From Eledone cirrhosa (taxonomy: Eukaryota), in the NCBI GenBank assembly GCA_964016885.1, contig CAXHJY010001763.1:1-33108 (forward strand): 33,108 nucleotides of DNA. The letters are read 5' to 3'. A program made the translations under genes and the position numbers. The notes beneath the pieces were generated by a model. The model ran no database searches and had not been told where the DNA came from. It saw only the letters and a program-made list of their open reading frames with translations. Shown here in pieces: positions 1,056 through 30,894 of the stretch (positions are counted from its first letter, which is position 1; the number at the start of each line of letters is the position of its first letter).

Positions 1056-1153
1056 TTATATTGTATTGATTTTTATACATTAAATTTTGCTCTGATACTT
1101 ACATAGAGCACTCTTCATTTCTATGACCTTTTCTGTTCCAACGGAAATTTCAA

Positions 1154-1194
<41 letters not shown>

Positions 1195-1420
1195 CATACA
1201 GGTACACATACATATATGCACGTATCAGTTTAGCGGACGCTTATTATAACGCCGCTTTGTCCGTTTGTGTCAGTGTTGAACAAAAAGGTGACGTGGTTGC
1301 CTTAACACCGTACTGCATAAAAATTCAGGCTGTTCAGTTTGTTTACAAACGAACAAAGCGGCGTTATAATAAGCGTCCGCTAAACTGATACGTGCATATA
1401 TGTATGTGTACCTGTATGTA

Positions 1421-1464
<44 letters not shown>

Positions 1465-1983
1465 ATATATGATAATATGCATCTGCTACTGTACGTCTGG
1501 TATACATATATGTATGTACGTATACACACATACTTACATTTAAGTAAGTGCCGTACTAAGAGTGAGAAATGAAATTTCGTTTTCATTTTATTTCATCTTC
1601 AAATTATATATATATATACTACTGGATTCAATCATTGATCTGTGGTCATCGAATGGTTATCAAGATGCAACACTTAATATTTTATTCGATTATGTCACCT
1701 GGCATATGTATCGATCTGTTTATCAGTCAAATAAACAAAGTCAGTTTGTTTAGTTACCTACCAGGTGACAAGAAACAATACTACAAACACTAACTACATA
1801 AATATTTATATATATATATCTACGTATCGCTCGTAACACTAACTACATAAATATTTATATATAATATATATCTACGTATCGCTCGTCAGCTGTCTACTGA
1901 GTGCCTTTGTAATTTCGAAACACTAAAAACAAAACAACTCTTCCCAGAAAAGAAGTATTAAAATACGATATATATATATATAA

Positions 1984-2160
1984 TCATCATCATCATCATC
2001 ACACCGTTTAAACGTCCATTTTTTCCACGCTTTAACGGATAGTACGAGTGGCAAGTCTGGTCAGGGTTGGCCACGTGTCACCACATCTGTTCCGGTGAGG
2101 ACTGAAAAATTTGGCCGGGTATTTTATAGCTGGATGCCCTTCCTAACACCAATCACGTGA
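1984..2160 (-). mobile_element. (GAT)n-tailed SINE-like element (probably RTE-dependent), one of many copies
   Basis: (CAT)n then tttaaacgtccattt...gctggatgcccttcctaacaccaa. The same motifs recur at ~7300-7465, 8618-9002, 10095-10240, 17631-18030, 19467-19710, 20660-20820, 22610-22882 and 24500-24778. Confidence 0.65.
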
Positions 2161-2178
2161 ATCTCTCTTCTCTCTCTC

Positions 2179-2880
2179 TAAAAAACACAAATAGTAAGAA
2201 AGGAAAAAAGATTTTTTGTTAGTAGAAAATGCTGAAGAGTGAGATTCTTTCAGTGTAATATCAAAACATTTATTTATTTATAAAGAGGATATTTACGCAT
2301 TTGAAATAATGGTCACCGGTTTCAGCATTATATGCATTGTCAATTGCGGATATGCATAATATGGTTAAGTTTCATATTTATTACAAATAATAATAATAAT
2401 AAGGGGAAGAAAAAATTATTAGGTTTTACATACATATTTTCAAAGGAGAGTTCATACCTCTGTCCGTGTTTTTCCTTCTTTTCTCTTTCCCTTTTTTTTA
2501 TTATTATTTGTATTAAATATGGAACTTAACCATATTATGCATACCCGCAGTTGACAATGCTGAAACCGGTACCATTATTATGGATTGGCAGTATCGGTGG
2601 AGGGTTGGACGCCATGCTTTCTAGCATAGTTACGTCCCTTTACGATCTGAGTTCAAATCCCGCCGAGGTTGACTTTGCCTTTCATCCTTACGGGGTCGAT
2701 AAAATAAAGTACCAGTAATGCACTGGGTAATTGCTGGCCTTGTGCCTAAAGTAAGAAAACAATATTAAGTGCGTAAATATCCTCTTTATAAATAAATAAA
2801 TGTTTTGATATTACACTGAAAGAATCTCTTCACCATTTTCTACTGAAAATTTTTTTTTTCCTTTCTGTTATTTGTTTTTA
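2179..2880. repeat. Inverted repeat (~2179-2412 vs ~2480-2880) with a SINE inserted in the right arm
   Basis: The left arm aligns to the reverse complement of the right arm once 2580-2767 is removed. Confidence 0.8.
2580..2767 (+). mobile_element. tRNA-derived SINE, family A
   Basis: Head tggattggcagtatcggt, B-box gagttcaaatccc, and central ctttgcctttcatccttacggggtcgataaaataaagtaccagt shared with other copies in the window. Confidence 0.8.
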
Positions 2881-2923
2881 TATATATCAATATATCAACT
2901 CGTGTGTTGTTACTTTTCTACAT

Positions 2924-2964
<41 letters not shown>

Positions 2965-3101
2965 TATATATATATTATATATATTATATTCACTCGAGTG
3001 AGACCCGGCAAAGGTGGAAGATGCTGGATGGCGGACGTCCTCCGGTCTTTGATTTTCAGCCCCATGGATTTTATCTATTACATTCATTTGTTATATTTCG
3101 A

Positions 3102-3159
3102 ATACCTGATGATATCACCGGATTCATAGGGAACCCGGTCATTGAAGTGATCATAGTAT
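3102..3159 (+). ncRNA. Type I hammerhead-like motif (A15.1->G variant)
   Basis: atac CTGATGA tatc-accggattc atagg gaacccggt-catt GAAG TGATCA TA gtat. Palindromic helix III; one core deviation. Confidence 0.6.
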
Positions 3160-3406
3160 AATAAACCTTTCAAGGATTTACACAAGTCCGGCCTCCTGTC
3201 ATTTCATATATATATATATATATATATAATATATATATATATATATAATATATATATATAGAGAGAGAGAGATACGTAGGTCGGATGTAAAAGCAAGATG
3301 TCTGAATGCCCGACGAATTACAATTGCTTTCTGCGCCTATGCTTTTGAAACCTATAGTAACAGAATAAATGTTATTGTGTATGAATCATAATAAATTATC
3401 TTCTTT

Positions 3407-3620
3407 TTGGCAGAATCGGTTGAGCATCGGACAACATGCTGAGCTGCATAGAGTTACGGCTTTTTACGTTCTAGGTTCAAATCTAAACCGAGGTTAGCTT
3501 TGCCTGTCATCCTTAAGGGGTCGTAAAATAAAGAACCAGTCATGCACTAGGGTCGATTTAATCGACTTTCCCCCCTTCCCTTCAAATTGCTGGCCTTGTG
3601 CCTGAAGAAGAAATAGTTAT
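3407..3620 (+). mobile_element. tRNA-derived SINE, family A
   Basis: tggcagaatcggtt...ggttcaaatc...ctttgcctgtcatccttaaggggtcgtaaaataaagaaccagt...ttgctggccttgtgcc. Confidence 0.8.
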
Positions 3621-4241
3621 ATACACCAATTTATTTCCGTTTCCTTTCTACGGACCTTTACGTAACTCTAGTACAACACCACACGCAACTTTAAATGCTA
3701 ATAACTGAGGACATACACATGATAGAAATTCCCCTGTAAACTATATAGAAAAGGGTTATTTATATAGTTTTACGTATTAGTAAATGTTTTTTTAAAATAT
3801 TGCAAATTAATTATAATTTATTAACATTAACAATACTGGAATATCTTTCAACAAGTTGTAAACCCGGTTTAAACAAAATATTAAGAAAGTTGACATATAT
3901 ACTGATTGTTAAAGATAGGTTTATACACTTATAGCTTTTGTATGCAAGTATCGGACAAAAGATCTTAACGTTTAAAGTCGCATAATGAATTTATAAACAG
4001 AGAGAGAGAGATACATATATATATATATATATTACAGAGAGAGAGAGAGATACATATATATATATATTACGCTCTGCTAACTCTCTAGCCCACTAAATAT
4101 TAACACTTCGAATATTTATACTGCCGGCACTAGTATCGAGCACCTTTGGCATACGCTACTTGGCAAATAACTATATGTATCACCTATCCCTCCTTTTTCT
4201 CTCTTCCTCGATACGTAAATACTATATATATATATATATAT

Positions 4242-4575
4242 ATAATATAAGATCAAAAGATGGTTAAAGGAGTTCCATGTATTTTATTATGCGCATTTCA
4301 AAAACAAACATCATCATGCAATAATATTTGTGTTTTCATCAGATAAAACAGGAGAACATGATATGAAGGCTAAAAAACACTTGTGGATAGTGCAGTTTTA
4401 AATCAAATATTATTGCATGATGATGTTTGTTTTTGAAATGCGCATAATAAAATACATGGAACTCCTTTAACCATCTTTTGATCTTATATTATGCATACTC
4501 CAGTCCTACAAACTGTAGAGTGCTTCTTATCCGATATCTGCATTGCTTTATTGTACTACAATAAAACTCACCTCC

Positions 4576-4578
<3 letters not shown>
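4242..4578. mobile_element. (TA)n-flanked fold-back insert (arms 4242-4330 / 4404-4492, tail to 4578), PLE-like
   Basis: ~89-bp inverted arms, a hammerhead overlapping the left arm, and an ACTC...GAGT hairpin at 4497-4521. Confidence 0.75.
4282..4348 (-). ncRNA. Type I hammerhead ribozyme motif
   Basis: Minus strand: ttttat CTGATGA aaacacaaatattatt gcat gatgatgtttgttttt GAAA TGCGCA TA ataaaa. Confidence 0.85.
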
Positions 4579-4636
<58 letters not shown>

Positions 4637-4788
4637 GAAAATAGAGAAATTAATGTAAGCAAGAAGCCAACAGTAATTCAGACATATAAGTGACTATTAC
4701 GTCAAGATGAAAAATATTTAACGCAAGATATGGGAAAATAATTCAACCCAAATTCAAAACAAGTCAAGACCAGAATATATATGCAGCA

Positions 4789-4861
<73 letters not shown>

Positions 4862-4963
4862 GCGCCCGTAGGCAGTATGCCTGGTTAGCAGTCGATGCTC
4901 TTGTAGAGCAGAGTAATAATAGTATAAGAACGAAGGAACAAAGACGAGGTTACACATTAAAGC

Positions 4964-5051
4964 ATATCTGAGGATGTTTCGATCCTAGAGTCGGGTTCGA
5001 TAAATAATAGATCGTTCCTCGAGCTGATCGACAGTGAAACATATGTAATAT
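4964..5051 (+). ncRNA. Type I hammerhead motif with long (~61 nt) helix II
   Basis: atat CTGAGGA [tgtttcgatc...gatcgacagt] GAAA CATATG TA atat. It lies between short inverted arms 4923-4945 / 5081-5104. Confidence 0.7.
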
Positions 5052-5192
5052 TTTATTAAATATAATATGATGCAACACTGGTTCTTTGTTCCTTTATTCT
5101 TATATGTATAAGGTAAACAGAAATAACAACACAATCGCTACAGTATATGGAAGGAATATACCAGGTTAACGCTTGAAATAGCAGGAAGAGGG

Positions 5193-5228
5193 TCTTAAAG
5201 TTTCGGACGCTAGTCCTTCATCAGAAGA
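5193..5228 (-). ncRNA. Minimal type I hammerhead motif
   Basis: Minus strand: tctt CTGATGA a GGAC tagc GTCC GAAA ct TT aaga. It sits inside an inverted-repeat element (~5108-5160 / ~5688-5740). Confidence 0.75.
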
Positions 5229-5468
5229 AACAAAAGGAGAAATTAGAAAGATTGAAGGGGCAGGCGGGGTGGAATTGGAAAACATGTCTTTAGAGAAAAA
5301 TAACAGGTCCATTCATGTTGCCATCTCTCGGAAAACTGCTGATGCTGGCGTTCTGTGTATGATATACTTTTTTTTAGAAAAGTAGATGATGGAGCGCGTC
5401 TGGGGCAGTATGTCCATTCAATCTTTCCAATTTCTCATTCCTTCCTCCGACGAAGAACCATGTATATA

Positions 5469-5738: not shown

Positions 5739-5766
<28 letters not shown>

Positions 5767-5770
<4 letters not shown>

Positions 5771-5990
5771 TTATTAAAATAACAGATTAAAGTTTAAGCA
5801 AAGAATCGCTGCTTTCACCCTTAACGGGATCTTCAGAAGATCCCGTTAAGGGTGAAAGCAGCGATTCTTTGCTTAAACTTTAATCTGTTATTTTAATAAA
5901 TATTTGCTCTACGGTTCTTATATATTTGATATATATTTATCCTTATCGAGCCCTCTTTGGATTTTAGTCTTCAAATTTATTATTATTACT
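5767..5990. mobile_element. Perfect 68-bp-arm palindrome (5767-5903, centre 5835) plus tail; second copy at ~27529-27740
   Basis: ...gggatcttc a gaagatccc... is symmetric over 137 bp, (TA)n-flanked, with a GCTC...GAGC hairpin at 5906-5951. Confidence 0.8.
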
Positions 5991-6388: not shown

Positions 6389-6395
<7 letters not shown>

Positions 6396-6555
6396 ATATA
6401 GAAATGGCTTCTACAGGACTAGAACTGTTTCATTCAAATGAAACAGTTCTAGTCCTGTAGAAGCCATTTCTATATTAAATATTTATACTCTGCTTTGTAT
6501 TGAGTACCTTTCTTACTGTGGTTACCCCCGATTGAACCTGGGATAAACTTATCTT
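6389..6555. mobile_element. Perfect palindrome (6389-6482) plus tail; non-inverted copy at ~9003-9113
   Basis: Centre tttcatt-ca-aatgaaa. The arm carries the 3' half of a hammerhead (GAAA cag ttctagtc ctg TA gaagccat), and an ACTC...GAGT hairpin lies at 6487-6505. Confidence 0.8.
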
Positions 6556-6628: not shown

Positions 6629-7308
6629 TCCCACACTGTAAAGTCTTGTAGGAGTCATGACAAAAAGCACACATCCCACACTGTAAAGTCATGTAGGAGT
6701 CACGACAAAAAGCACACATCCCACACTGTAAAGTCATGTAGGAGTCACGACAAAAAGCACACATCCCACACTGTAAAGTGGTCATGTAGAAGTTACAACA
6801 AAAAATACCCAGCCCACACAGTAAAGTGGTCATGTAGATATCACGACAAAAAGCAGCCAGCCCACACTGTAAAGTGGTCATGTAGGAGTCACAACAAAGA
6901 ATTCCCAGCTCACACTGTAAAGTGGTCATGTAGGAGTCACAACAAAAAACACCCAGCCCACACTGTAAAGTGGTCATGTAGGAGTCACGACAAAAAACAC
7001 CCAGCCCACACTGTAAAGTGGTCATGTAGGAGTCACGACAAAAAACACCCAGCCCACACTGTAAAGTGGTCATGTAGGAGTCACAACAAAGAATTCCCAG
7101 CTCACACTGTAAAGTGGTCATGTAGGAGTCACAACAAAAAACACCCAGCCCACACTGTAAAGTGGTCATGTAGGAGTCACGACAAAAAACACCCAGCCCA
7201 CACTGTAAAGTGGTCATGTAGGAGTCACGACAAAAAACACCCAGCCCACACTGTAAAGTGGTCATGTAGGAGTCACAACAAAAAACACCCAGCCCACACT
7301 GTAAAGTG
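6629..7308 (+). repeat. 48-bp minisatellite (3 x 45 bp + 11 x 48 bp) at the 5' part of a (GAT)n-tailed SINE-like element
   Basis: Unit cacactgtaaagtggtcatgtaggagtcacgacaaaaaacacccagcc. It runs into ggttggcaatgggaagggcatcc...gatgatgatgat (to ~7465). Confidence 0.92.
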
Positions 7309-7572
7309 GTTGGCAATGGGAAGGGCATCCATCCGTAGAAATCTAGCCAGAAACATTCCAATATGAGAAAGACACGGTAACCCGACCCAACTTGCCACTA
7401 ATGGGTCAAACTCGTCTAACCCATGCTAGTGTGGAAAATAGACATTAACCGATGATGATGATGATATCTGAAAGCACAAGGACCTCCAGAGGTCAACTGA
7501 TGAGAAGGGACACTTCTGTGTTTCGTCCATTTATCCACTGTCTTCGCCCGCTTATCCACTGTCTTTGCCCGG

Positions 7573-8350: not shown

Positions 8351-10264
8351 TATTGATAGTCTGAGGTACTGGGACCAGGAAGACACAAACCAAAGAAGTA
8401 CTCAATGCAGAGTGGGTATATTAGTGAAGGTAGAGGATCTACGGTGAGCTCGGGTGTTTAGACTAGTTACCTCTTCTCTGAGAATACATAACTAACTGAA
8501 ACCACTAAGTTTGCGGTAGATCCTCTATGTTCACTAATATATATATATATATATACTCCTACCCATAGTAGCATGGAAAATGGACATTAAACGATGATAG
8601 TGGTGATGATGATATCTCATCATCATCATCATCGTTTAACGTCCATCTTCCACGCTAGCATGGGTTAGACGAGAGTTGTCCTACTTGACCGTGTCTTGCT
8701 CGTATAGGACTATCTGGCAGGTTTTCTACGGCTGGATGCCCTTCCTAACACCAACCACATTTACAGTGTGGACTGGGAACTTTTTACCGTGTTACCTACA
8801 CGACCACATTACAGCGTGGACTGTGTGTTTTTTTGTTGTGAGACCTACACAGTCTCATATATATATATATATCATCATCATCGTTTAACGTCCATCTTCT
8901 GCGCTAGCATGGGTTGGACGGTTTTGTACCACTTGAGGCGAGATTGGTCGGGAGACTGTGTCTCGCTCATACAGAACTGCCTCTGACAGGTTTTCTATGG
9001 CTCCTTTGAATGAAACAATTCTAGTCCTGTAGAAGCCATTTCTATATTAAACATTAAATACTCTATGTATTGAGTACCTTACTTACTGTAATTAACCCTG
9101 ATTGAACCCAGGATACACACACACACACACATATATATATATTAGAAAAAAAGTTTCATTTATAAAGAAGTTTCATGTATAGCAAGGGCGGTGCCCAAGC
9201 ATGGCCTCATCTGGATGGCTGGAACAGGTAAAAGAGTGTATGATATTTATTGTGTATCGACCTGTTACACTCTGCCTGTGTCTAGAGTGCTTGCTTTGGT
9301 ACCAACAGCAGTATTTCACTGAATCACCTACACCATATATATATATATACACAAAACATGAACCAGAGCTATATTTATTTGTGCTAGATTAAAGATATAT
9401 CGTTCCATTTTTATCTTTAACATGGTTGGATTATCTGCTAAAAATATTATAATTATCACGTTTTACTAAAATATAACAAATACCTCATACAGGAATGCCA
9501 GAGTAATCAGTGGTATATATATATATATATATATATACGTAAAGGTAAAGGAACCAAATAAATATATATATTTTTTAAAATAAGACTCCAGTTGCATTTT
9601 CGATTTCATCTTTTTTTCTTTATACTTTCACTCGTGTAGGACACCTCGGTTATTTTTCATTTTGTAAAAAAAAACCTCACTTTCTAATATATATATATAT
9701 ACACATATATATATATCTATATATACACATATATATATATATACATATATATCTATATATATATACATATATATCTATATATATATACATATATATATAT
9801 ATATACACCCAAGCAGGGAAAAGCGGACGTAAAATGATGATGATGATGATGATACATATATATACATATACATATATATATATATGTATACATATATATA
9901 TATACATATACATATATATATATATATTCATGTAATGACACACCAATACACTAACCCACAACACTTATATACATACCACTCACGTGTCTGTACTTACTAT
10001 TTAACACACGTACACACATACTTTCATCAATACACACACACACCCATCTACTTTACCAGTTTTGAACCTGAGCATAGAGATATGATTGCTCTGTCATCAT
10101 TTCATCATTTCATTTTACGTCCGCTTTTCCCTGCTTGCAAGGATGGGACGGGAACTGATTCTGGCTTGATTTCTACAGCTGGATGCCCTTCCTAACACCA
10201 ACCTCATTTACAGTGAGTACTGGGTGCTTTTTTGCCGTCGCACCTCCACGACCACTTTGCAGTG

Positions 10265-10589: not shown

Positions 10590-11097
10590 ACTGATGCTCG
10601 CTTTCCAAATCTGTCACAGGTCATTCATAGCCTTATAAGTTAATGCTCTTCTGTGAAGTATGTATTCCTCGCCAGTGCAATTACAGCTGATGACCTTTGA
10701 GCCTAAGTAGATAAAGCAAACTGTTCTTCTTAGTTCAGTATTATTTGTAAATATTCCATTTTCGTTATCAATGTTTAAACACATGTACTCAGTTTTTGCC
10801 ACGTTTGGTTCTAGGCCAACAGTGTGTGCTTCGTATATTATGCGAGTTAAATGATCTTGTGCTTTCTGTATTGAAGGCGCAATTAAAACAATGTCATCTG
10901 CAAATGCCAGGTTTGATAACTTAAAACCAGATGTGAGCTCAATGCTGTCTTCGGGATGGGCTTCTGCTTTTAGAATGTGGTCAATAATGATGACAAATAT
11001 ATATGGTGCTAAAGTATCTCCTTGTAATATGCCTTTCGTTATATTGAATTTGGGGGATTGTTTTCCATTGATACTTTCTACAGTCATTTGATTAACA
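10590..11097 (-). pseudogene. Non-LTR retrotransposon (RTE/RTEX-like) reverse transcriptase, 3' segment
   Basis: Translates as KGILQGDTLAPYIF...LAFADDIVL...GLEPNVAKTEYM...FIYLGS. Confidence 0.88.
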
Positions 11098-11099
11098 TA

Positions 11100-12412
11100 C
11101 GAGGGGGGATCAAAAAGTTCGCGGAATTTTATCGTAGTAAGAAAAAAATAGGTTAAAACAATATTAAACATGTCAGAACATTGTCACTGGGTGTTTACCT
11201 TGCTATTAGTCACTTGTAGTCAGTTATGCGTGGACTATTGTACAGTACTGACACACTTTAAAAAACCTCTTTTTGGAACAATGGAAAATAGTTATTTTGA
11301 GATAAGATCGAATATCAAGTTTCTGGTGAAACTCAAATGGAAAGGAACACAGATTATGGAGGCTTTAGTTAAAGTTTACGGTACTACTGCTCCAAAGAAA
11401 ACTGCTGTCTACAAGTGGATTCATCGATTCAAACAAGGGAGAGACGACCTTGAAGACGACCATTGCAGTGGAAGACTAGGAACATCAAAAAATGACCAAA
11501 CGTTGAGGCTGCTCAGACTTTTATTGAAGAAGATCGAAGAATAACAGTTAATCAGTTAGCTAAGTCCCTAGACATTTCATATGGTTCGGCAAATTCAATT
11601 CTGCACGATAATTTGGGACTAAGCAAGCTTTCAGTGCGATGGGTCCCAAAAGCGTTGTGCCCTGATCAGCTGATTCTTCGAAGTGATCTGTCTTTGGCGA
11701 TATTAAACAAAATTGAAGTTGATGAAGAGCATTTCCTGACCAGAATCATCACCGGAGATGAAACCTGGATCTACCAGTATGATCCTGAATCCAAACAGCA
11801 GTCAAAATAGTGGCTTCCGCATGGATCATCGGGGCCAATCAAGTTCAAATCTCAAAAGTCGGATAAAAAAGTGAAGGCCACCATTTTCTGGGATTCAGAT
11901 GGGGTGATACTAATAGATTATCTTGAAGGTCAAAGAACTGTGACAGGAGCTTACTATGCAAATGTTTTAAGGAAACTGAAAGAGGCATTAGTCAAGAAAC
12001 GAAAAGGGAAACTTCATGGTGGGATCTTGTTTGACCATGATAATGCACCAGCGCATTCTGCGAGGGTTGCAAAAGAAGTTCTTCGAGAATTTCGATGGGA
12101 AGTGCTTCCTCACCCGCCTTATAGTCCAGATTTAGCCCTATCAAACTTTTTCCTCTTTCCAAAACTCAAAGAAATGCTAAAAGGAACCCGTTTTAGTGGT
12201 GTTGAAGAAGCTAAAAACACTGCCAACACATGGCTTCGAACAAGGCCTTCAACTTTCTTTAGAGACGGCTCTCGAAGCTGGAAGCATCGCCTTGTGAAGT
12301 GTATTGACCTGGATGGCAACTATGTAGAAAAATAAATTGAAGGTAAATCATATTTTTTGAAAAATAGAATATTTTCTGAAAAATTCTGCGAACATTTTTG
12401 ATCCCCCCCTCG
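11100..12412 (+). mobile_element. Full-length mariner DNA transposon (Hsmar2/irritans-like), defective
   Basis: TA target duplication (11098-99, 12413-14) and ~31-bp TIRs cgaggggggatcaaaaagttcgcggaatttt / aaaattctgcgaacatttttgatcccccccTcg; 1.3 kb long. The subfamily call is from recollection of TIR and protein similarity. Confidence 0.95.
11281..12335 (+). pseudogene. Mariner transposase pseudogene
   Basis: Motifs WVPKAL, ITGDETW, HDNAPAH and YSPDLALSN. Frameshift near 11500, TAG at 11808-11810, and the third catalytic Asp appears as Asn. Confidence 0.92.
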
Positions 12413-12414
12413 TA

Positions 12415-13100
12415 TAGGCATTCAATTGCAGCAATGATTTTCTCTTTAGAGCGCTCAGCATTAAAAAAAATATGCAACAAAGTTCTTGAGTCAGCATCAT
12501 CTCCTGCTAATTGGAGAAAGTCTATTATAATGCTTCTGCCCAAGAAAGGTGTCTTGCATAACATGTCTAATTATAGCGGCATATCATTACTTAATCATGC
12601 TGCAAAGCTGTACAACTGATTACTGCTAAATAGATTAAGAAGAAGCCTCAATAGTGATATTAGCAACACTGAAAGTGAGTTTAGGCCATCTCACAGTTGC
12701 ACTGAACAAATACATACTTTAACCCTTTAGCATTTACATTACTCTATATATACTATAATATTTTCATGGTAAAGACTTTACCTCACATAATTATCGAATC
12801 TATAGATTTTGATATTATTTATTTTCAGAACAATACCTTAACATCAGTATGAGTGGCTGATTACAGCCGGTTTGAACAGAAAGTGGTGAGAGACTTCTGG
12901 ACGGATATGGCCAGTTTAAATGCATGAAAAATGGTGCCTTCTGGTAGTTGCTGTATTCATCGATTTCTGGAATCGACAGTATTCATCGATTTCTGGAATC
13001 GACAGTGTGGATAGAACTGCAATCTTTAAAATCTTGCGAGACACCAGCCTCCCAGAGAAAATCAATACTCAATCACTTGTACATCAATATCACAAGCAGG
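12415..13100 (+). pseudogene. Non-LTR RT, more N-terminal segment (opposite strand to 10590-11097), interrupted by a MITE
   Basis: PANWRKSIIMLLPKKG...NYSGISLLNHAAKLYN...FRPSHSCTEQIHTL, then VAVFIDF...DSVDRTAIFKIL...LPEKI. Confidence 0.82.
12723..12923 (+). mobile_element. piggyBac-type MITE copy (right TIR damaged)
   Basis: TTAA|ccctttagcatttacattactct...ggatatggccagtttaaatgc; homologous to 18812-19034. Confidence 0.75.
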
Positions 13101-16502: not shown

Positions 16503-18343
16503 CTGACAGAGAAACCAATAAATATATACATTAGTAATAAATGTTTCGAACATAGGCAAAAAGCTAACAATTTTTTTTGGTGGTGGAATGGATTATATTG
16601 ATACCAGTGTGTGGAGGTGTGTGGCCTAGTGGTAAGGGTGTTGGGCTTATGATCATAATGTTGTGGATTCGATTCCTGGGCTGGGTTGCGTGTCGTGTTC
16701 TTGAGCAAAACACTTCATTTCACATTGCTCCAGTATACTCAGCTGAAAATGAGTACCAGCAATATCCAGGGGTTTACTCTTGTGATGGACTGGCGTCCTG
16801 TCCAGTAGGGAGTCTTGTACTCTCATTCACTTCATGCCATGAAACTGGGATAAGTACCGGCCTAACGATCCTTCTGGCTTAAGACAGACTTTGGACTGAG
16901 ACTAGTATGTGACTGGTACTTTATTCTATCGACCCTGTAAGGATGAAAGGCAAAGTTGGCCTTGGCAGGATTTGAACTTAGATCGTAAAGAGACGAAACA
17001 AATGCTGGGAAGTCAATGAAATCAAACAGTACTTGACTGTTACTTTATATTATTGACCCTGGGAAGGATTAAGTAATGGGTTAAGGTTAGAGTTATTTTC
17101 AACTCTTTTAATAAAATGCTTTATAGTACTCAATAGAGATATATCTGTCTTTGACAATGACTGTGAAAATACTGTGATACATATAACCTTGTCTTAATTT
17201 TCCATGACCCCCCCCCCCCCGCCAAAAAAATGACAATAATGTATTAATTATTGTCATAGTAAGTAATCCAGTGTGTGTGTATGTTTGTAGGATAGGGGGC
17301 TCTATATATCCACTACGACGAGCACTACCCCATATATAGGGGAAGTACTCCAGTGTGTGTGTGTAGACAAAGGAGCTCTATATCACATCTACCACCACCA
17401 CCAGCACTCTCCTTTATATATAGGGCAGTACTCTAGTGTACCTTGCCATGCCAAAGATAAATCTCACCTCCAAAGAAGGGTCCACCTCTTTCTTTGAGTT
17501 GCTCTTCAAAATAGCAGAGCTTGGATGTCAGCTTATTTTCCATAGCATCAGTTTTTTCATGTTCAGGGGTTTTGATTGCCTTTAAAAGGTGTTTTATCAT
17601 CTGCAATGTTGAATAGTAATGAAATATATATCATCATCATCATCATCATTATTATTGTTTTTAGCCTATTTTTCCATGCTAGCATGGGTTAGATGGGTTG
17701 TCAGGAGACCATATCTTGCTCTTATGAATCTAATTGGGCTTGATTTCTAGGGCTGGATGCCTTTCATAACACCAGCATCGTTACAGTGTGGACTGGGTGA
17801 TTTTTATCTTGTTATGACTCCTACATGACCACTTTACAGTGTGGGCTGGGTGCTTTTTGTCATGAATCCTACACGACCACTTTACAGTGTGGGCTGGGTG
17901 CTTTTTGCCATGACTCCTACACGACCACTTTACAGTGTGAGCTGGGTGCTTTTTGTCATGAATCCTACCCGACCACTTTACAGTGTGAGCTGGGTGATTT
18001 TTGTTGTGACACATACATGACCACTTTATATATATATAATTAATATGTACAGTCTCACATTCTACCGAGTGCACAGGAGAGGTTAAAGACATGGCAACCT
18101 CTCCTGTGCACTCGGTAGCCTATGAGACTGTACATTATCGAGATGCATATCCCTGGCTTCAGTACTGACTTGGTCTATGTAGACCTGTCCAACCCTTGGT
18201 AGCAGGTAAAGCTACTCTAAAACAATGATGATGATGATGATATAATATACAACTATGAACACAATACTATATCTGTATACAGATCACTTTCTCTTGCCAC
18301 CTGTCACAGAAATAAAATCTGAAATCAATAACTATATACACAC

Positions 18344-18380
<37 letters not shown>

Positions 18381-20394
18381 ATTTTGTCTGTGTCCACCAT
18401 ATATATATATATATATATACATAAACTCATACACTTTATACATTTACTGTGGATAAGGTATATTAATAGATCTATTTTTATATACATTTATATGTAGACA
18501 ATAATACATTCTATTTGTGTGTGTATTGATTTCATACACATGCACAAAGTTAAGGAATGATTGAATGTACCTCAGAATATAACTGGTACTTATATTATCA
18601 ATTCCTGTTAATAGTCAAGCAAATTGTAACTTGGTATTTAAATTACAATAATTAAAGGATAAAAGGATTAAATGTTGTTAAGAGAGTACTCTCTGTAAAT
18701 GTGGTTGGCATTAGGAAGGGCATCCAGCTGTAGAAAAAAGTGTTTTATCATCTGTAATGTTGAATAGTAATGAAATATATATATATCATCATCATCATCA
18801 TTATTGTTTAACCCTTTAGCATTTACATTACTCTCTATATATATTATTATATTTTCATGGTAAAAGCTTTATCTTATATAATTATCTCACATAATATTGA
18901 ATCTACGAGATTTTGATGTTATTTATTTTGAGAACAATACCTTAATGTCAGTATGAGTGGCCAGTTACAGCTGGTTTGAAAAGAAAGAGGTGAGAGAATT
19001 CTGGCCGGATACGGCTGGTTTAAATGCTAAAGGATTAAATTTAACCACAAAGAAGAATACACTTACCCTATCCATATGACTGACTAACATTTCATCTTTG
19101 GCCTTAAGGTAAGGGTCAGTGGGATTTAAAGGAGGATTGGGGTAGAGTTTCTCTAGGTAATCATTGCAGATTAAGGACTCGTAGATTATCTTGGAATCAT
19201 GTTCAATGACAGGAACCAATCCAAAAGGATTTTTCTCAAGAAACCAATCTGGTTTGAATTTTAGGTTGATGTTTACTGTTTCATGCCTGCAATTGAAACA
19301 ATAACAATATATGAGATGTTAAACACACACACACATGCACGCACAGTATGAAGTAAACTGTTACATGGTAGCAAAACAGATCTTTAATGCAGAGAAGAAA
19401 AACTGGGTGTAAGAGGAATCAAAATGTATTGTACAAGAGAGAAGACTGAGCTGGTATGGACATGTAATCATCATCATCATCGTTTAACCTCCATTTTTAC
19501 ACACTAGCGAGGGTTAGATGATTTGTCCTGTTGTAAGACGAGCCAGATCAGATGACCATATCTTGCTCACACAGAACTTATTCTGGCTTGGTTTCTATGG
19601 TTGGGTGTCCTTCATAACACCAACCATATTTACAATCTTTACTGGGTGCTTTTTGTCATGACATCCACATGATCACTTTACAGTGTGGACTGGGCACTTT
19701 TTGTCATGGCAGTAGCTCAGAGAGTCACTCCAAGTGAGCTGCTACTTATCCGAATTGAGAGATCATTTGAGAAATCACAGCTCAGGTACTATGGGCATGT
19801 GGTTAGAATGTCTCAGGAAAGAATTGCTGGACAGATTTTGCAGGCAGGAGACCCAGGGGTAGACCCTGAGCAAGATGGTTGGATAACATCCATGAGCTTG
19901 GCTGGTCTTGCTTGGGTATCCAGCCAAATCAGTTGGAGACGGTTGCTTCTGACAGGACCTGCCAGAAGGAGTGTTTGAGGACTCTGCCCCCATGACCCTC
20001 TCAGGAATAAGTGGGCAAAGAAGAAGAGTAGAAAAATGTCAAGCAGCCCAAGTAGAAGGAACTTGGGGAAGTGGAAAACATGAGAAGTAGTAAAAGCTGA
20101 TATTAAGAGGCTGAACCACATGAGGGAGATAAAGTATTAGAACAACAAGATGGTGGGTTGGAGAACATCTGTCCAACGAATACAAGCAAAGAAACATGGA
20201 TGTAAAATGATGATGATGGAGATATATACAATGGGATTCTATACAGTTCCTGCTTCTAAATTTCACTGACAACACATTGGTCAATCTAAGACTAGATTAG
20301 AAGACAGTACTATTGCAAATTTAGTGGGAAACACATGGTTGTAAAGTGAATTTCTAAACCACAGAACTCATGGATGGTGTGCATGAATCACTGC

Positions 20395-21197: not shown

Positions 21198-23425
21198 AGC
21201 ACACACATATATATATATACACACAGGCACACACATTCACCTATATTTTTAATGCATTACTTCCACTAGGACAGTGACAATTGAAGCACAGAAACACACT
21301 TTTAATTGACACTCACAAATAATGAAACACACTTCACTGAACTGAAGCATTTCTATAACATTAACCCTTTGGCATTTACATTTACTATTATATTTTCACA
21401 GTAAAGTCTTTACCTTACATAACATTTACATTACTCTATATTTACTATTATATGTTCACAGTAAAGGCTTTACCTTACATAACATTTACATTACTCTATA
21501 TTTACTATTATATGTTCACAGTAAAGGCTTTACCTTACATAACATTTACATTACTCTATATTTACTATTATATGTTCACAGTAAAGGCTTTACCTTACAT
21601 AACATTTACATTACTCTATATTTACTATTATATGTTCACAGTAAAGGCTTTACCTTACATAACATTTACATTACTCTATATTTACTATTATATGTTCACA
21701 GTAAAGGCTTTACCTTACATAACATTTACATTACTCTATATTTACTATTATATGTTCACAGTAAAGGCTTTACCTTACATAACATTTACATTACTCTATA
21801 TTTACTATTATATGTTCACAGTAAAGGCTTTACCTTACATAACATTTACATTACTCTATATTTACTATTATATGTTCACAGTAAAGGCTTTACCTTACAT
21901 AACATTTACATTACTCTATATTTACTATTATATGTTCACAGTAAAGGCTTTACCTTACATAACATTTACATTACTCTATATTTACTATTATATGTTCACA
22001 GTAAAGGCTTTACCTTACATAACATTTACATTACTCTATATTTACTATTATATGTTCACAGTAAAGGCTTTACCTTACATAACATTTACATTACTCTATA
22101 TTTACTATTATATGTTCACAGTAAAGTCTTTATCTTATATAACATTTAACTTAACATCCTTATGAGTGGCCAGTTATGGGTGGTTTGAACAGAAAGTGAG
22201 ATAATTTTGGCCGGATATGGTTGGTTTAAATGCTAAAGGGTTAAAGCATAAAAGTAGAGTCAATGTCCTATGTGATCACAAAGTCGGCTTTGTGACCACA
22301 TAAGTCTTGGTTCAATCTTCTATGGTACCTCTTGTTGACAACTACCTTGTCACTGGAATTTAGTAGATGGAAACTGTACAGAAGTCTGTAGTATATTATC
22401 ATCATTCATTCTTATGTGTTAATGTGTATGAGACAAATTTTTTCCAGTTCTGCATTTGTTTCCGAATAGGCTATGTAGCTGGTAAACCTTAACACACATC
22501 GTTATAGCGCTTCACCAGCCCCTTCTTTCTGTTGTCTGTATCTGTTTATGTATTTACGTGTAGATGTGTGTTTATGTAACTAAAGTGTAATGTACATTAC
22601 GAATGGACTAAATGATTTTAAGTGGTTGTGCATGTGTCATGACAAAAAAAGCACCCAGGCCATACTGTAAAGTGGTTGTGCAGGTGACGCGATAAAAAAG
22701 CACCCAGTACTCACTGTAAATGAGGTTGTTGTTAGGAAGGGTATTCAACTATAGAAATCAAGCCCATATCAGTTCTGCATGAGCAAGACAGGTCACTTGA
22801 CCTGGCATTGCCCACAACAGGACAACCCGTTTAACCCATGCTAACATGGAAAAATGGACGTGAAACGGTGGTGATGATGATGGAAAAGATTTCAAATTGT
22901 CCTAACAACTGTCTTACCTCGGGCTGCGACTCATGGTGTCTGACACTCTTACCGGATACAGAGCCTCTTCCTTTTTTTTTCACTTAATGTGTTTTTTCTT
23001 GTCATTTCCTCCTTTGTGAGACCCAGTTTTATGAGATCAGCTTCCACCATCTCTGCTCAACCCTTTTTCATATTCCACTACTATGACTTCCTTTCACCAA
23101 CATTTCAATGTTTTAATTTATTTTTTATATAACATTTGAAATCCTTAATACCATTAAAATAACTTTGCTTATCTTTTAAGCCTCACATTTAAATATAAAC
23201 TTTTCTTCTTCTTTCTGAGTGAGTTGTCCTCAAACACTCCTTCCAGAGGGTCCTGTCAGAAGCAAATGTCTCCAAATGATCAAACTGGATCACCAAGTGA
23301 GACCAGCCAAGCTAACGGATGTTATCCAACCACCATGCTCGAGATCTTCCTCCGAGTTTCCTGTTAGTTGGCGTTGCCTGTAAAATCTGTCCAGAAATTC
23401 TTTCCTTAGTCAATCCAACCATGTA

Positions 23426-23477: not shown

Positions 23478-26447
23478 TATATATACATAGGAAACTGTGT
23501 GTATATAAATATTTGTGTATGTGCATGTCAAACACACACACACGCACATACAAAGGAAACTGTGCATGTGCATACATATTTGTGTATATGCTTTTTTTCA
23601 TATATATACACATACACATTTACACACTCACACACGTGGGAAACTGTGCATGTGCTTGTCAACATCTGTTACGCATCTGAATTGAATTTTTAATTTGATA
23701 TGTTTAATTTAAACAAACCAATTATAAAAATAGTAACAGATTAATTGAACTTTCCAGAAATAGCAGTCAAATCCCCTTCAAATCTCTCTCTACAGTTTGA
23801 GTTATTAAGTACACCTTTTTAAATCTACTCAGAGATAACAAGGGTTATACAGCAACAATCTCAACAAAAGTACCAGAAAAAAACCTTATGAGAGAGCCTG
23901 GAGCCAATGAGTGAAACCTATGCTTATATTGAGCCAACAAGAACAGCTGCAACAAGAACAACAGCTGCAACAAGAACAACAGCTGTAACAAGAACAACAG
24001 CTGTAACAAGAACAACAAAACAAGCACAGAAAATGTTAACTCACGGAATCTGTTTATGTTCCAAAACTAGTCTGGTCCTTTGAGCATATGGACAGAATCT
24101 CATACTGTACAGTCGTAAGGTACCTGGCTCTTGTTTGGGACATTGGCTACCTAAAAGGAAGTTAAACAAAATGAAAGAGAATATATATGTATATAAACAA
24201 AAAAATAAGAAAAAAATTGGCCATAGACTCAGTACAGTGTAGTATACCACACTGTAGTGTGTACTTATTGCTAAATGAACTGGACTATTGGGGGTTACAT
24301 ATCTTGACCATGGAGAGAAGAGAGTGACTCATACTAAACTGTCGTATCTACTTACAACCAGGTGTCTAATCCCACTACACTTGTCATACTTATCACCCTG
24401 TTTACCATCTACTTTGTTCTAGCCTCTACTCCTGTAGGGTAGAGAGGGCTCTTCAGTTGAGTTAGTGACCTACAACCTCTCTAGAGCTGGTGCCACGATA
24501 AACAGCACCCACTCCAAATTGTAGGGTGAGAGTGTTGGTAGCAGGAAAAAAGTGCCCAGTCCACTTTGTCGGATGGTTGTGGTAGTACCATGAGGAAACA
24601 AATCCCATATATGCCGTGAAGTGGTTGGCATTAGGAAGGGCATTGAGCTGTAGAAGCCATGCCAAAAATGGAATGTATGACCAAGATAGTCAACTGAGTA
24701 GCCTACTTTGCCACTGAACATGACAACCTGTCTAAACCATATGAGCATGAAAAATAAACGTAAAACGATGACGATAGCGATTACATATATATTTATATAT
24801 ATATATGCAGAGGTTATATTTAATTTGTTGGGATTCAACAAGCTTAAAAATTTAATAACTGATATAAAACACTCAACAGGGTTGAGTAAATATTCAATAT
24901 ATTAATAAATGGAAACTATATTTATAAAACGATAATTATTTTATTATATATATTTCAAGGGCAACCAAGGCAAATTATGGTGCGCTTTCATCAGATAAAA
25001 TACAGATTTGTTTTATAAATAAATATTGACATACCTAGAAAAAAGACAACGTTAACGGTTGAAGACTATCTAGTGAACTTCAACCGTTAAGGTTGTCTTT
25101 TTTCCGGGTATGTCAATATTTATTTATAAATATAGTTTCCATTTATTAATATATTGTATATATATATATATATATAGGTTTATGTTTGTGCATAGAACAA
25201 TGAAAAAAAGTCAGATGTAGGTAGTTAGTTAGTTCATTGCTTTACGATCGTTTCAGAGGCTCGATTCATCTTTGGAGATCAATGTATCAACTAAAATGGT
25301 AGTGGTTAAGCTACTACCTATTTCTGGTCTTGAAATCCATGTTCAACTGGTCGTTTTCTTCAGAAACATTGAATATACAGGCTTATATATTAGATATGTG
25401 TTTAATTATATACACATTGGTGTAGTCTTGGTTACCCACTCTATACAGATATAACTTTATATGTGTGTCATCATCATCATCATCTTCGTTTAACGTCCAT
25501 CTTCCACGCTAGCATGAGTTAGTCGTGTATGTATGTATATACAGGGGCATCTCACTGATCTCACTTGTGGCAAAGACCCTCAACAGGATAATTATTAACC
25601 AGATCCAGCCTGAGATGGAGAAGAAGCTTGGACAACCAGAATGGTGTCACAGTTTGAGGTTGGTATGGAAGTCAGACATTCATAAAAACCTGAAGATATG
25701 TCTCTCGCTACAGTGGTTTCTGTGCTGATACTTGGACACTGACCAAGAGACTCACTTAGATGGTGGATGGGTGATACACGAGGATGTTGAGGATGGGCCT
25801 GAACATTAATCAGTATACACTGATGATGAAGAACTCAGAGCTGTACGGGAGTCTTCCAAAAGTCAGCTTGAAAGTGACACAGAGGAGATTGAGGTTAGTT
25901 GGACATGCTCCATGCTCCACAACATTCAGAGTTGACACTTCACTTAATAGTCCTGTGGGAGCCCCTACATGGACACACTGGAAGATGGAAACTGAGACAT
26001 ATATTGATGCCCTAAAGACAGACTGGTTTCTGAGAGACATGTGACATAGCGGTGACGATGAAGGACAGAGATCGATGGCAAGAACTCGTCCATGGATCTC
26101 GGGAATTTTACCCGTCCTGTATATATATATATATATATATACACAGTTGACCCCAGAATTCGAGGGGTCACGTTTCTAGAGCACCCGCGAATATTGGACG
26201 TGGTCCATAAAAATGCCTATAAACGTCAAAACATAACGTAAAACATAAGCCGGCAAATGCCGTATATTGTTATTAATAATTAAGCATTAAAAAACGTGAA
26301 AAAAAAAATTAATACGAAAAAAGCCATGAAAAATTTGCGGAAGATATTTACGATTCCGCGAATATGCGGCGGTTTCCACGAACAATTATTAGTTAGGTTC
26401 TAAGGAAAATCTCGCGAATAACCGGGACTGCGAATGTATGGTGTACA

Positions 26448-26483
<36 letters not shown>

Positions 26484-27923
26484 CTTGGGGAGGGTCATAT
26501 TTGTGTAATAATATTGCCAGAATTAATAACAGAACACACTCACTGTTTGGTTGGTTTTCGCTTCTGTGTCTTTTATATCAGTTAATTTAATTTATTCGGT
26601 CCTCAATGTTACCATTGACTGACCAACGGTCAAAAATACAGATACAATATAGACACAAACACATATATATAGTCTAACAAAGTATGCCTAGGCATACAAT
26701 GCAAGGGGAGGAAACATAATAGCACCACTGACGATGTTGCAGATGTGCAACGAAAGAACTTTGTTAGATTATATATTATGTTTGTGACGATATTGTATCT
26801 GTATTTTTGACCGTTGGTCAGTCAATGGTAACATTGAGGATCGAATAAATTAAATTAACCGATATAAAAGACACAGAAGCTAAAACCAACCAAACAGTGA
26901 GTGTGTTCTGTTATTAATTCTAGCAATATTATTACACAAATATGACCCTCCCCAAGTATAACAATATTTGTTTCGACACACGATTTCATATAAAAAACCT
27001 CGCAATATATATATATATATATATATATATAGATGTATTTATTTATATTTATAATCACAGTTGTCATATCAACAGCAACCCTCTAATTATTCAAGTAAGC
27101 ATGATATGTCGTTATTATCATTGTCATATGGCTCGTAAATTCTAACGACAACATAACATCTATTACGGGAACCTCTAAACTGTCACTCAATCTGTTAAAA
27201 ATAACAGCTAAACCTTCCCCCAAACACTCCTTGTCGTTATAAATACGGAGAGAACATATCAGATAATTGCGATCGTGATCAGTAGAACTTTGTATCAGAG
27301 GGAACCATTATGAACGACACCGCTCTCACATAACCGGTGTTTGCTTACGAATGCACGCATATACATATATGTCCATACGTGTGTGTGTATCTTTTTTTCT
27401 TTGCTACCTTGCTCCTCCCGTGTGTGTGTGTATACATATTTATAAATGTTAAATATTATCATATATATATATGTATGTGTGTGTGTACATTTTACGTATA
27501 TATAGAAGTACTTATACATGCCTGTATATATATTTATTAAAATAACAGATTAAAGTTTAAGCAAAGAATCGCTGCTTTCACCCTTAACGGGATCTTCTGT
27601 TTCAGAAGATCCCGTTAAGGGTGAAAGCAGCGATTCTTTGCTTAAACTTTAATGTTATTTTAATAAATATTTGCTCTACGGTTCTTACATATTCGATATA
27701 TATTTGTCCTATTTGATATAAATTTATCATTATTACTATATATATATATATATATATAACAAAGGAAGTGTGGTAAGATACCAGGTGGACCATAACGTAC
27801 CAGAGTACTCGATACTTTTGGTAGTAGAGTGGGTAATATGAAAAGAGTCAGGACCCCAACGGTTGAGCTCCGGCCGTTTCGACAGCTAGATCTGAACTCA
27901 GCCGTCGGGGTCCTGACTATTTT

Positions 27924-27967
<44 letters not shown>

Positions 27968-28083: not shown

Positions 28084-28361
28084 ATTTGAGTATGTTGACA
28101 ACTTGTGTAGAACTTCCTTGTTATCAAACTGCAGGATTGACTTAAAACCAGTTCGATGTAGCAGCGCTAACATATCTTCACTGCACCACGACACTAACAA
28201 AAACGTTTTTTTTTTCCCTTTGTTTTCGAACACTTCACATCACCCACATATCTCGGTTACTTTAGAATTTTGTTCCAATGGAGTGGCTGAACTGGTCGTA
28301 ACAGTATATCGTTCTTGCTCTGTGGAATCTCGTACTATCTTTGACACCGGTACGAAACTAT

Positions 28362-28541
28362 GACCTTTAACAACAGTCAGCGCCGCCACATGTAAACAAG
28401 ACAGACCAAGGGAGGTTACTCTAAACGACTTAAACTAATCGAACGAGACCTTTAACATCTGTCGGCGCCGCCGTCGTCGCCGCCATATGTAAACAAGAGA
28501 CAAAGGGAGGTCACTCTAAACGACTTAAACTTGTCGAACGA
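28362..28541 (-). promoter_or_regulatory. Tandemly duplicated putative GSTO promoter module (28362-28446 / 28447-28541)
   Basis: CpG-containing direct repeat ~190-370 nt upstream of the first in-frame ATG. Each unit has TTGTTTAC (minus strand; FoxO-type), GCCGCCA (YY1-like) and AGGGAGGT(T/C)ACTCT. Confidence 0.55.
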
Positions 28542-28562
28542 GAAGTACAATATCATTAAAAA

Positions 28563-29270
28563 TGGTGGATTGGCAGTATTATTAGACGGTGGATTGGCAG
28601 TATCGGTAGAGGGTCGACGCCATGCTTTGCAGCAAAGAGTTACGGCCCTTTATGATCTGAGTTCAAATACCGCCAGAGTTAACTTTCATCCTTACGGGGG
28701 TCGATAAAATAAAGTACCAGTAATACACTGAGATAATTGCTGGCCTTGTGCCAAAAGTAGAAACAATTATTAGAGCATCGGACAACATACTTCGCGGCAT
28801 AGTGTTACGGCCCTTTAAGTTCTGAGTTCAGATCTCGTCGAGGTTAGCTTTGCCTTTCGTCCTTACGGGGTCGATAAAATAAAATACAGTGTACCCCTGA
28901 CATTCGCTGTCTCGATTATTCGCGGAATTTTCCTTTGAATCTTCGCGGAATCGTAAATAACTTCCGCGATTTTTTTTATTGCGTTTTCCGAGGCAATATG
29001 TACATATATTTAGCGCTAAATTATTAATAACAATATATCGTATTTGCCGGCCTATTAGACGACATTTCGCATAAGACGTTCCCTCTTATTTTATTATATT
29101 TTACGTGATATTTTGACGTTTGTAGGCCTTTTTATGGGCCACGTCCAATATTCGCGGTTTTTCACCCTTCGCAAGTGCTCTAGGAACGTAACCCAGGGGA
29201 CAACTGTACCAGTAACGCACGGGGGTCGATTTAATGGAGTTGTCCTTATGCCGAAATCAGAAACTACTAA
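28563..29270 (+). mobile_element. Two tandem family A SINEs; the second is split by a Tigger-like MITE
   Basis: Two gagttca...ctttc(a/g)tccttacgggggtcgataaaataaa cores. The second continues TA-ccagtaacgcacgggggtcgat after 29206. Confidence 0.78.
28887..29206. mobile_element. pogo/Tigger-like MITE inserted at the TA of a SINE
   Basis: TA|cagtgtacccc...ttcgcgg...ggggacaactg|TA. Confidence 0.78.
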
Positions 29271-29626
29271 ATACATCAGTGGCGTTGGACTGACAAAATC
29301 ACCAGTGAATTGTTTATTTAAAAATCAATCGGATAGACTTGTTTTTTTTTTTTGTAAGCAGATTTAAGTCTCTCATTGATAATGGGTTTTTAAACTCGAA
29401 AATATTTGGTATCGTTAAATTTGCTAAGGTAAGATTCTTTTGTTATCTTGGCAATTTAACATTCTGCATATGCACTGTTTTGGTTTTCAAAATTTAAATT
29501 AGTGTTTCATATATATATTTATATATATGTGAATATAGACATAGAATATTCGAAAATATTCTGTATGTTTATAATAAACATTTTGAAGACCTAATCGCTA
29601 TAGAATAGAATACGTCACGTATTACA

Positions 29627-29671
<45 letters not shown>

Positions 29672-30302
29672 CCATATATCTTTAGATATTATATGTATGT
29701 ATGTATACAAATATATTGAAGCTAAATTTTAAATATATTCCATCTCCTCCCCAGACATAGAGTATCTAGGAATATATAATAAAATGTGTTCTTCGTTTAA
29801 AATTTTATAATAAGAGGGAAATTTGGCTACTACTTCGAGCAGGTCAAATGACTGCTGTATTTAGTAAAACTCTTATTAAATTACCACAAAAACAAGAAGA
29901 AAAAACAAAACGTACCATAATTAGAGACAGGGTGTAATAATTTATCCTCAGACCAGCAACCCAGGGTGCCGCGTTGTGGGATTGAATCCGAAACAACGGA
30001 GCTGTAAAACGAAATTCTTGACCACACCGCAAACATTTCTCATTCGACAATTAAAAGGAGAAACAATTTAAGTATCTTAGAGTTGCCTCCCCTACACTGT
30101 AAAGCGTTTTCAACCCACCCTCATCCCTACAACGTCAAACGAGCTTCTATGTGCTGCACAATTTACACAGTTTATTTTCAGTAAACTAATAACTAGAGAA
30201 TGTCAGTCGAATTGGTGGCGTTCATACATTTCCAGGGACATAAAAGAAGGCTAACAACTCAAGCAACGAATAAAAAGTCAATGTCTGACTTGATTTACCG
30301 GG

Positions 30303-30307
<5 letters not shown>

Positions 30308-30342
<35 letters not shown>

Positions 30343-30412
30343 ACATACGCAAGATTATGTATGTTAAAATATAGTTATCCATATCTATGTTTTTACGTGT
30401 ATGCACACACGC

Positions 30413-30450
<38 letters not shown>

Positions 30451-30451
30451 G

Positions 30452-30535
<84 letters not shown>
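30308..30535. repeat. (GT)n and long (CA)n microsatellites
   Basis: Directly visible. Confidence 0.95.
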
Positions 30536-30537
<2 letters not shown>

Positions 30538-30894
30538 ATTACAACAATGACATAAACAGGTACTTAAGTTTCGTTGGGTTCTGGACCTCAACTCATCAAC
30601 TCATTCAGGCTGAATGTAACTATTTATACTAAACTCGTCCTATGAATTGAGTGCTCTTACCCTTGGATATTTTAACCGAACTTTTACTACAGTATATATA
30701 TAGTTTAGATCTAGCTGTCGGAACGACCGGAGTTCAGCCGTCGGGTCCTGACTCTTTTCCTATTACCCACTCTACTACCCGAAGTATTGAGTACTCTGGT
30801 GCGTTATGGTCCATCTAGTAACTTATCACACCCTCTTTGTTATATATATATATATGACAGTCGATCAACTTTCGTCAAATCGTTTCCGTTGGTC

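Follow-up and report, generated by a model that had tools for sequence, protein, structure and literature searches.

How Penelope-like elements (PLEs), the closest retroelement relatives of telomerase, choose their RNA and come to leave inverted copies with a one-sided tail is a question on which a small repeated motif in Eledone cirrhosa bears; in vitro work covers just one PLE, for which the signal of recognition is undefined. The stretch analyzed here (the window) is the whole of contig CAXHJY010001763.1 of assembly GCA_964016885.1, 33,108 nt, a 33-kb contig of a 3.0-Gb animal genome that is dense in TA microsatellites and short fold-back inserts. The original prediction had listed in it 12 stems of the form RCTC-loop-GAGY at the start of the 3′ tails of what it took to be unrelated elements. 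We asked what these stems are, and found that they belong to a twin set of bulged hairpins located between the hammerhead ribozyme motif and the start codon of Hydra-clade PLEs, where each hairpin probably serves to dock protein on the RNA and so fixes where reverse transcription begins. In Hydra-type PLEs the pair is a real and conserved RNA signal that is apparently undescribed.

Each of the 12 stems exists at the coordinates and on the strand given, and a pattern check in the window placed every one of them 38–65 nt before a downstream TA run (12/12; ∼38–66 nt had been proposed), the run being short at 8400 and following a CA repeat at 9060. At 8/12 sites a local inverted arm ends 0–13 nt before the hairpin, much as first described (1–13 nt), and at 1089, 9060, 30633 and 30769 no local inverted arm was found in the window. 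The loops, described as 5–38 nt long, are structured: a bulge and an upper stem lie inside them.

Eight of the sites fall into six families that lead into Hydra-type open reading frames (ORFs): A (27807 and 30769), B (6487 and 9060), C (24871), D (5906), E (1089) and F (4497), where the letters A–H are labels coined in this analysis and L-numbers denote fetched loci. The tails of these families are mutually unalignable, while their proteins are 29–51% identical over ∼140 aa. The description “unrelated elements” was dropped on the strength of these protein alignments, which tie families A–F together: all six traceable families are Hydra-clade PLEs. The assignment relies on diagnostic protein motifs, namely RWK/RWR, DKT, a CxCx5C linker and, at the C terminus, a GIY-YIG domain (PMC8557442; here and below, cited papers are drawn on in part). 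An N-terminal RW(R/K) motif is present in families A–E and RWI in F, all six carry DKT and not DKG, and the CxCx5C linker precedes the C-terminal GIY-YIG in L291 (family B), in L290 and, by eye, in family D; Neptune-type Cx2-5CxxC motifs are absent from L290 and L291. Single open ORFs of 713 and 772 aa contain the YRDD catalytic motif of reverse transcriptase (RT), with Pfam RVT_1 unmatched on both, and the Pfam GIY-YIG model matches L291 weakly and L290 not at all. Examples of naturally intact frames lie at L290:4597-6915 and L291:1619-3760. Hammerhead core patterns occur in the sequence of the pseudo-long terminal repeats (pLTRs), and the insertions sit in (TA)n as tandem and inverted copies with a one-sided tail. 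This ribozyme sits separately, upstream of the hairpin, and the idea that the hairpin is hammerhead stem III was dropped.

L078, a near full-length family-D copy comprising an inverted arm, pLTR, tail, and an RT and GIY-YIG ORF broken by a frameshift, contains another stem of this type, beginning a few bases beyond the position at which stubs give way to TA. The second hairpin, first seen there, was predicted from this single copy and then sought in the other families. The results show that the tail is the next unit's 5′ untranslated region (UTR) and that the element order is ribozyme, hairpin 1, spacer, hairpin 2, ATG, with hairpin 2 beginning ∼2–6 nt beyond the stub end point in full-length copies of 5/6 families. 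What had been missed is thus the pairing: the listed hairpin is one of two, and the second, absent from stubs, marks the main 3′ end, hence the distance of 38–66 nt between hairpin and TA. A genome pattern for family A, which itself required a hairpin, gave 298 matches versus 1 for the control, and 99/100 among the matches listed share one continuation. The patterns for F and C required only some G/C after the tail; here the hairpin is the continuation shared by 40/46 listed places in family F and by 21/46 in family C, the rest of the latter being unrelated flanks, and a few F and C copies carry point changes in hairpin 2. Hairpin 2 of family E is present in L282, with a long loop, and four further Hydra-type families of the same genome also carry two hairpins. 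Hairpin 2 starts 33–111 nt before the ATG, tails measure 65–113 nt in this genome, and the two hairpins are spaced 65–113 nt apart here and ∼62–74 nt apart in other organisms. A separate observation on family A is a short tandem array at G000:C2:356030062-356031920, in which seven matches 299 bp apart each carry hairpin 2; it is possibly a non-autonomous, retrozyme-like derivative.

To locate element ends, we compared ten reference junctions (natural copies) with all fetched loci and counted the ends adjoining a TA run. Of the 271 found, 110 have hairpin 1 and 153 have hairpin 2 within the next 15 nt, while 8 lie elsewhere, so that 263/271 fall in two zones that make up 12% of the reference length. 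Arbitrarily placed stretches alone gave 39, 51 and 5, respectively (90/95 in the zones). End positions are blurred by a few bases, the last letters of the element being TA-like, and family A is over-sampled. Moreover, 22 ends depend on post hoc choices (15 on the remnant of hairpin 2 in family B, 7 on hairpin 1 of two families re-anchored ∼20 nt upstream); dropping them leaves 241/271 in the zones. Both kinds of element end are coupled to the hairpins.

In order, the motif comprises NCTC, the upper stem with its loop, a bulge that begins with U and is usually 2 nt long, GAGY and then, in most cases, AC; the lower stem has 4 bp, and the upper stem covaries. The 2-nt-bulge form fits 8/12 window sites in a strict-form test, a single-U bulge fits 1881 and 30633 by eye, 24871 looks like a copy, altered by mutation, from a family that conforms, and 4897 fails the strict form. 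In a set of 39 hairpins chosen by CTC and GAG anchors alone, a rule that missed families A and E and the second hairpin of F and mis-anchored one entry, upper pairs 1–3 in the 2-nt-bulge register are formed in 38/39, 30/38 and 20/25 hairpins; the fourth is not significant, and other registers reach at most 10/38 at the first upper pair. At that pair C-G is found in 23 hairpins and T-A in 15, all four Watson–Crick types occur at the second, G-U type pairs are present in the upper stem, and the bulge begins with U in 38/39. Among 23 hairpins from other organisms, 98.5% of cells pair and 0/500 shuffles reach the pairing level or the covariation score, the consensus structure for this test having been drawn from the same 23 sequences. 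A covariance model built from these outside hairpins only ranks 1089 (E 6e-6), 27807, 30769 and 5906 first in the window, with 1089 on top and three at E<0.01, and recovers 8 of the 12 listed sites among 18 window hits at E≤10. Isolated short hairpins fold weakly (0 to −9 kcal/mol), and stability alone is therefore uninformative. The original proposal of a shared cis-acting structure marking the start of the inverted copy, to be checked by inversion end-points and by covariation, is borne out by both: ends cluster just 5′ of the hairpins, and the upper stem covaries among varied pair types.

The loose pattern RCTC-N4..40-GAGY is common, with 82 strand-hits in the window, most of them away from element ends; the signal resides in position and fuller structure. 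We thus analyzed a blind sample of 77 arbitrarily placed 10-kb stretches, in which units were called from TA runs and inverted arms only. Among 190 fold-back units, 71 have tails of 15–160 nt, and the strict motif starts 2–9 nt after the arm end in 16/71 of these, compared with ∼0.3 expected and with 0, 0, 0, 4 and 0 in controls shifted by −120, −90, −60, +30 and +60 nt. Among the remaining 55 are mutated copies, tails that belong to different PLE families, and palindromes that are unrelated. When the strict motif is followed by RC (n = 86), a TA run lies 30–89 nt downstream in 67 cases and upstream at the same distance in 18. A Pfam GIY-YIG search yielded mainly Neptune-type elements, which served as control (one of them, L061, carries DKG and the Cx2-5CxxC linker): the hairpin was found in 0/7 5′ regions of Neptune-type PLEs of the same genome, three of them with a clear tail-to-ATG junction, and 27/30 downstream regions of GIY-YIG hits are without it.

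In other organisms, one scan of metagenome contigs provided 28 Hydra-type ORF starts, at which the 190 nt before the ATG were inspected. Two strict hairpins precede the ATG at 15/28 loci and at 13/13 with an intact ribozyme core, several misses being without a native 5′ end, while the controls gave 0/203 downstream windows, 0/28 reverse complements and 8/5600 shuffles. On the outside contigs, five second copies stop 2–4 nt short of hairpin 2, one of these at a contig end, and another second copy stops 12 nt short of hairpin 1. When the six published Hydra consensus sequences are inspected by eye, one of them, Hydra-1_Ajap, has both hairpins, and two, Hydra-2_Ajap and Hydra-2_Amil, have hairpin 1 in the tail. 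We also noted a Hydra-type 5′ region, L173, with two hairpins that have no U bulge.

Based on this arrangement, we propose that the element protein would bind each hairpin, that its GIY-YIG nuclease would nick both strands of the (TA)n target, and that each nick would prime on the AU-rich stretch directly 5′ of a hairpin, whose bases could pair with the TA target once it is nicked. Copying from hairpin 2 would produce a copy holding hairpin 1 and the tail, copying from hairpin 1 would produce a tailless copy, the inverted arm, and hairpin 2 would be copied only if a tandem unit were read through. With two start sites, one per hairpin, tail length would therefore equal hairpin spacing. A more ambitious form of the proposal, in which a duplicated TAR-like hairpin, conserved across distant aquatic animals, would dock two RTs per RNA, each priming one strand, is put forward tentatively, as we give it slightly less than an even chance. 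More speculatively, an arginine-rich RW(K/R) helix near the protein N terminus could read the U-led bulge.

Several observations weigh against this proposal. Hairpin 2 of family B is reduced to a 3′ remnant in the full-length copies seen, and stubs still end there (15 ends). For sites 1881, 4897, 8400 and 30633, which represent four families, searches gave stubs or nothing and no ORF link; a genome search found no read-through copy of 4897 or 1881, and for 8400 it gave one place, which is not a read-through copy. Neptune-type PLEs form the same fold-backs and tails without the motif, so the general mechanism does not require it. The ends of inverted arms scatter more widely (up to 14 nt) than the main ends, which lie mostly at 2–6 nt, and the AU-rich start zones, with their likeness to the TA target, could in part determine where elements end. 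With regard to structure, two of five shuffle measures (pair count and pair types) are not above shuffles, the inner three lower-stem pairs are invariant in the other-organism set, and the first upper pair differs mainly according to whether the hairpin is the first or the second, implying few independent events. Only 12 clusters make up the 28 outside loci, and the twin motif occurs in 7 of them; of the six published consensus sequences, two have variant forms by eye and the octopus one is without the hairpins.

We considered other explanations. The hairpins might mark RNA cutting or 3′-end formation just upstream, through self-cleavage, the element protein or a host nuclease, with copying from RNA 3′ ends as in long interspersed nuclear elements (LINEs). 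This would predict the same end geometry, and RNA-seq read ends of the lizard PLE fall on its start sites (PMC11167929), yet that element starts internally on uncut RNA in vitro (PMC11167929), and the motif is small and mostly stem. An Rfam 15 scan of the window points the same way: among the 150 listed of 179 matches none reaches the gathering score, and these are mostly microsatellite-driven microRNA models, with no ribozyme family and no hammerhead among them. We regard RNA processing as unlikely. Slightly less likely still is a signal read as DNA, in which the GIY-YIG nuclease would recognize the inverted repeat, either within single-stranded cDNA or within a tandem intermediate, and would cut next to it as the insertion is resolved. 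Craig et al. attribute the tail to nuclease-mediated resolution (PMC8557442), and the Drosophila Penelope nuclease requires tail sequence for recognition, as cited in PMC11167929; against this, finished stubs are without hairpin 2, and the strand specificity of the bulge (0/28 reverse complements) and the G-U type pairs of the upper stem both point to RNA.

Alternatively, the hairpins could be 5′ UTR operators of translation or packaging bound by the element's own protein, the ends being set by adjacent TA-like bases. The short distance from hairpin 2 to the ATG (33–111 nt), the AU-rich start zones, and family B, which keeps its end without a full hairpin 2, would fit such a function. However, other nearby TA-rich stretches are nearly unused (8/271 ends elsewhere) and the offset is maintained across unalignable families and other organisms, and we consider this a shade less probable than the DNA signal. 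As for chance, or by-eye selection of a loose four-base pattern, the abundance of loose strand-hits in the window would allow for it, but the motif-blind tests (tails, ends, outside loci and covariance model) refute it, leaving it very improbable. Docking of the element protein at each hairpin accordingly stays, in our judgment, the probable explanation.

What was known already is the class of element, with its fold-backs and tails, and a pair of start sites; the twin hairpin is apparently new. The Hydra-clade PLEs with endonuclease (EN+) of Craig et al. 2021 share RWK/RWR, DKT, CxCx5C, GIY-YIG and a short single ORF, as well as the pLTR hammerhead, (TA)n targets, and tandem and inverted insertions with a tail, but PLE tails are given there as 30–40 bp, versus 65–113 nt here (PMC8557442). 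The word “stem-loop” is absent from the covered text of that paper, and “hairpin” and “stem-loop” are absent from the covered text of its supplement, figures aside (PMC8557442). “Hairpin” was likewise not found in passages of an Octopus vulgaris repeat paper (PMC13282606) or in the covered parts of a retrozyme preprint, supplements aside (10.64898/2026.07.22.740005), and no description of the motif was found in the literature searched, a scope outside which lie subscription journals, Repbase notes and figures. In several Hydra-type elements (L164, L169, L178 and L179), hammerhead stem III is ACTC-N-GAGT (PMC8557442, File S2). Being complementary to the hairpin arms, stem III could engage in an alternative pairing that couples ribozyme folding to hairpin binding.

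The closest mechanistic parallel is PAc of the lizard Anolis, a PLE of the Poseidon clade (Frangieh et al. 2024), which cuts and extends both target strands and starts reverse transcription inside the RNA at two sites bracketing the tail (PMC11167929). PAc resembles the Hydra-type elements in its AT-rich target, a predicted dimer protein, and initiation linked to a stem-loop downstream of the ribozyme; it differs in clade and in initiating in an AC-rich stem-loop within the ORF, and the parts of the report covered mention no conserved or duplicated recognition motif and bound the binding site only to the first 172 nt (PMC11167929). By eye, the lizard PLE RNA contains a twice-repeated GAAAG...ACAAC module near the start sites (PMC11167929, supplement 1), a repeat which, by analogy, may hint that paired signals are general to PLEs.

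In stringent LINEs the recognition hairpin lies 5′ of the start site and hence is copied into every insertion; it is a single hairpin, whereas the Hydra-type pair lie each just 3′ of their own start, with the second left out. Like the Hydra-type motif, that of UnaL2 and the zebrafish LINEs is a conserved internal-loop hairpin near the start of reverse transcription, and it is needed for mobilization (PMC1636434, PMC4176376). The bulge was also compared with the arginine sandwich motif of 7SK and of the trans-activation response element (TAR) of HIV. Both have a paired base, a bulged U, a G and an A-U pair, and bulges of one or two bases, but the G-A-G strand belongs to the basal stem here and not to the loop-closing stem (PMC6189040); the match of the bulge layout to arginine sandwich geometry is taken as a lead only. 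A small, covarying motif repeated near both ends would make tail length predictable from sequence and Hydra-type ends annotatable. In the more ambitious form of the proposal, the hairpin pair would measure out the PLE tail as a molecular ruler and would be a portable signal for internal starts of reverse transcription; for RT-based tools the motif could offer a programmable start of this kind.

The features of the window are as follows:
989–1038 (+), hammerhead ribozyme core in the pLTR of the family-E Hydra-type stub (core pattern; same region upstream of the ORF in L282)
1089–1109 (+), hairpin 1 of family E, tail to ∼1156; second hairpin in L282
1881–1902 (+), hairpin, single-U-bulge variant; inverted arm 127–349 / 1605–1827 stops directly before it
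4071–4141 (+), additional candidate hairpin, long loop, ∼80 nt before a TA run (covariance model, E 0.29, weak; absent from the original list)
4245–4489 (unstranded), fold-back arms 4245–4308 / 4426–4489 of the family-F stub
4295–4342 (−), hammerhead core inside the family-F stub (core pattern)
4497–4521 (+), hairpin 1 of family F, tail to 4578; read-through copies carry the second hairpin
4897–4909 (−), hairpin-like stem outside the strict form, family not traced (pattern and strict-form test)
5770–5900 (unstranded), fold-back arms of the family-D stub
5906–5951 (+), hairpin 1 of family D, tail to 5989; near full-length copy L078 has second hairpin and ORF
6392–6479 (unstranded), fold-back arms of the family-B stub
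6487–6505 (+), hairpin 1 of family B; the full-length copies seen have a degenerate second hairpin
8400–8413 (−), hairpin 1 of family H, shortened loop; fold-back 8418–8541
9060–9075 (+), hairpin 1 of family B, second window copy
24871–24887 (−), hairpin 1 of family C, mutated copy; inverted arm near 25123–25152, second hairpin in read-through copies
24952–24994 (−), hammerhead core of the family-C copy (core pattern)
27807–27830 (−), hairpin 1 of family A in a fold-back stub at ∼27760–27925; second hairpin in read-through copies
30633–30652 (+), hairpin of family G, single-U-bulge variant
30769–30792 (+), hairpin 1 of family A, second window copy

Further stems of the loose pattern lie at 9269–9288 (+) and 17299–17323 (+), the former 46 nt before a TA run and yet failing the strict form. 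Tails of other PLE families, starting with ACTCGTG but without a GAGY partner, occupy 9625–9685, which matches the Neptune-type ends of L069, and ∼2895–2925, which matches L057/L073 more loosely; the tail of a common PLE family lies at ∼26961–27005, with no ORF link made. At 11097–12415 there is a transposon that we take to be of mariner type, with inverted ends 11097–11130 / 12380–12415 and a transposase frame broken by stops and shifts; it interrupts a fragment of a LINE-type RT frame at 10614–11183 (−). An open frame at 18965–19318 (−) presumably resembles a glutathione S-transferase exon; the window may be intronic. Finally, tandem arrays with 60-bp and 48-bp units are found inside other dispersed repeats at 21380–22148, 6630–7310 and 17809–18028.

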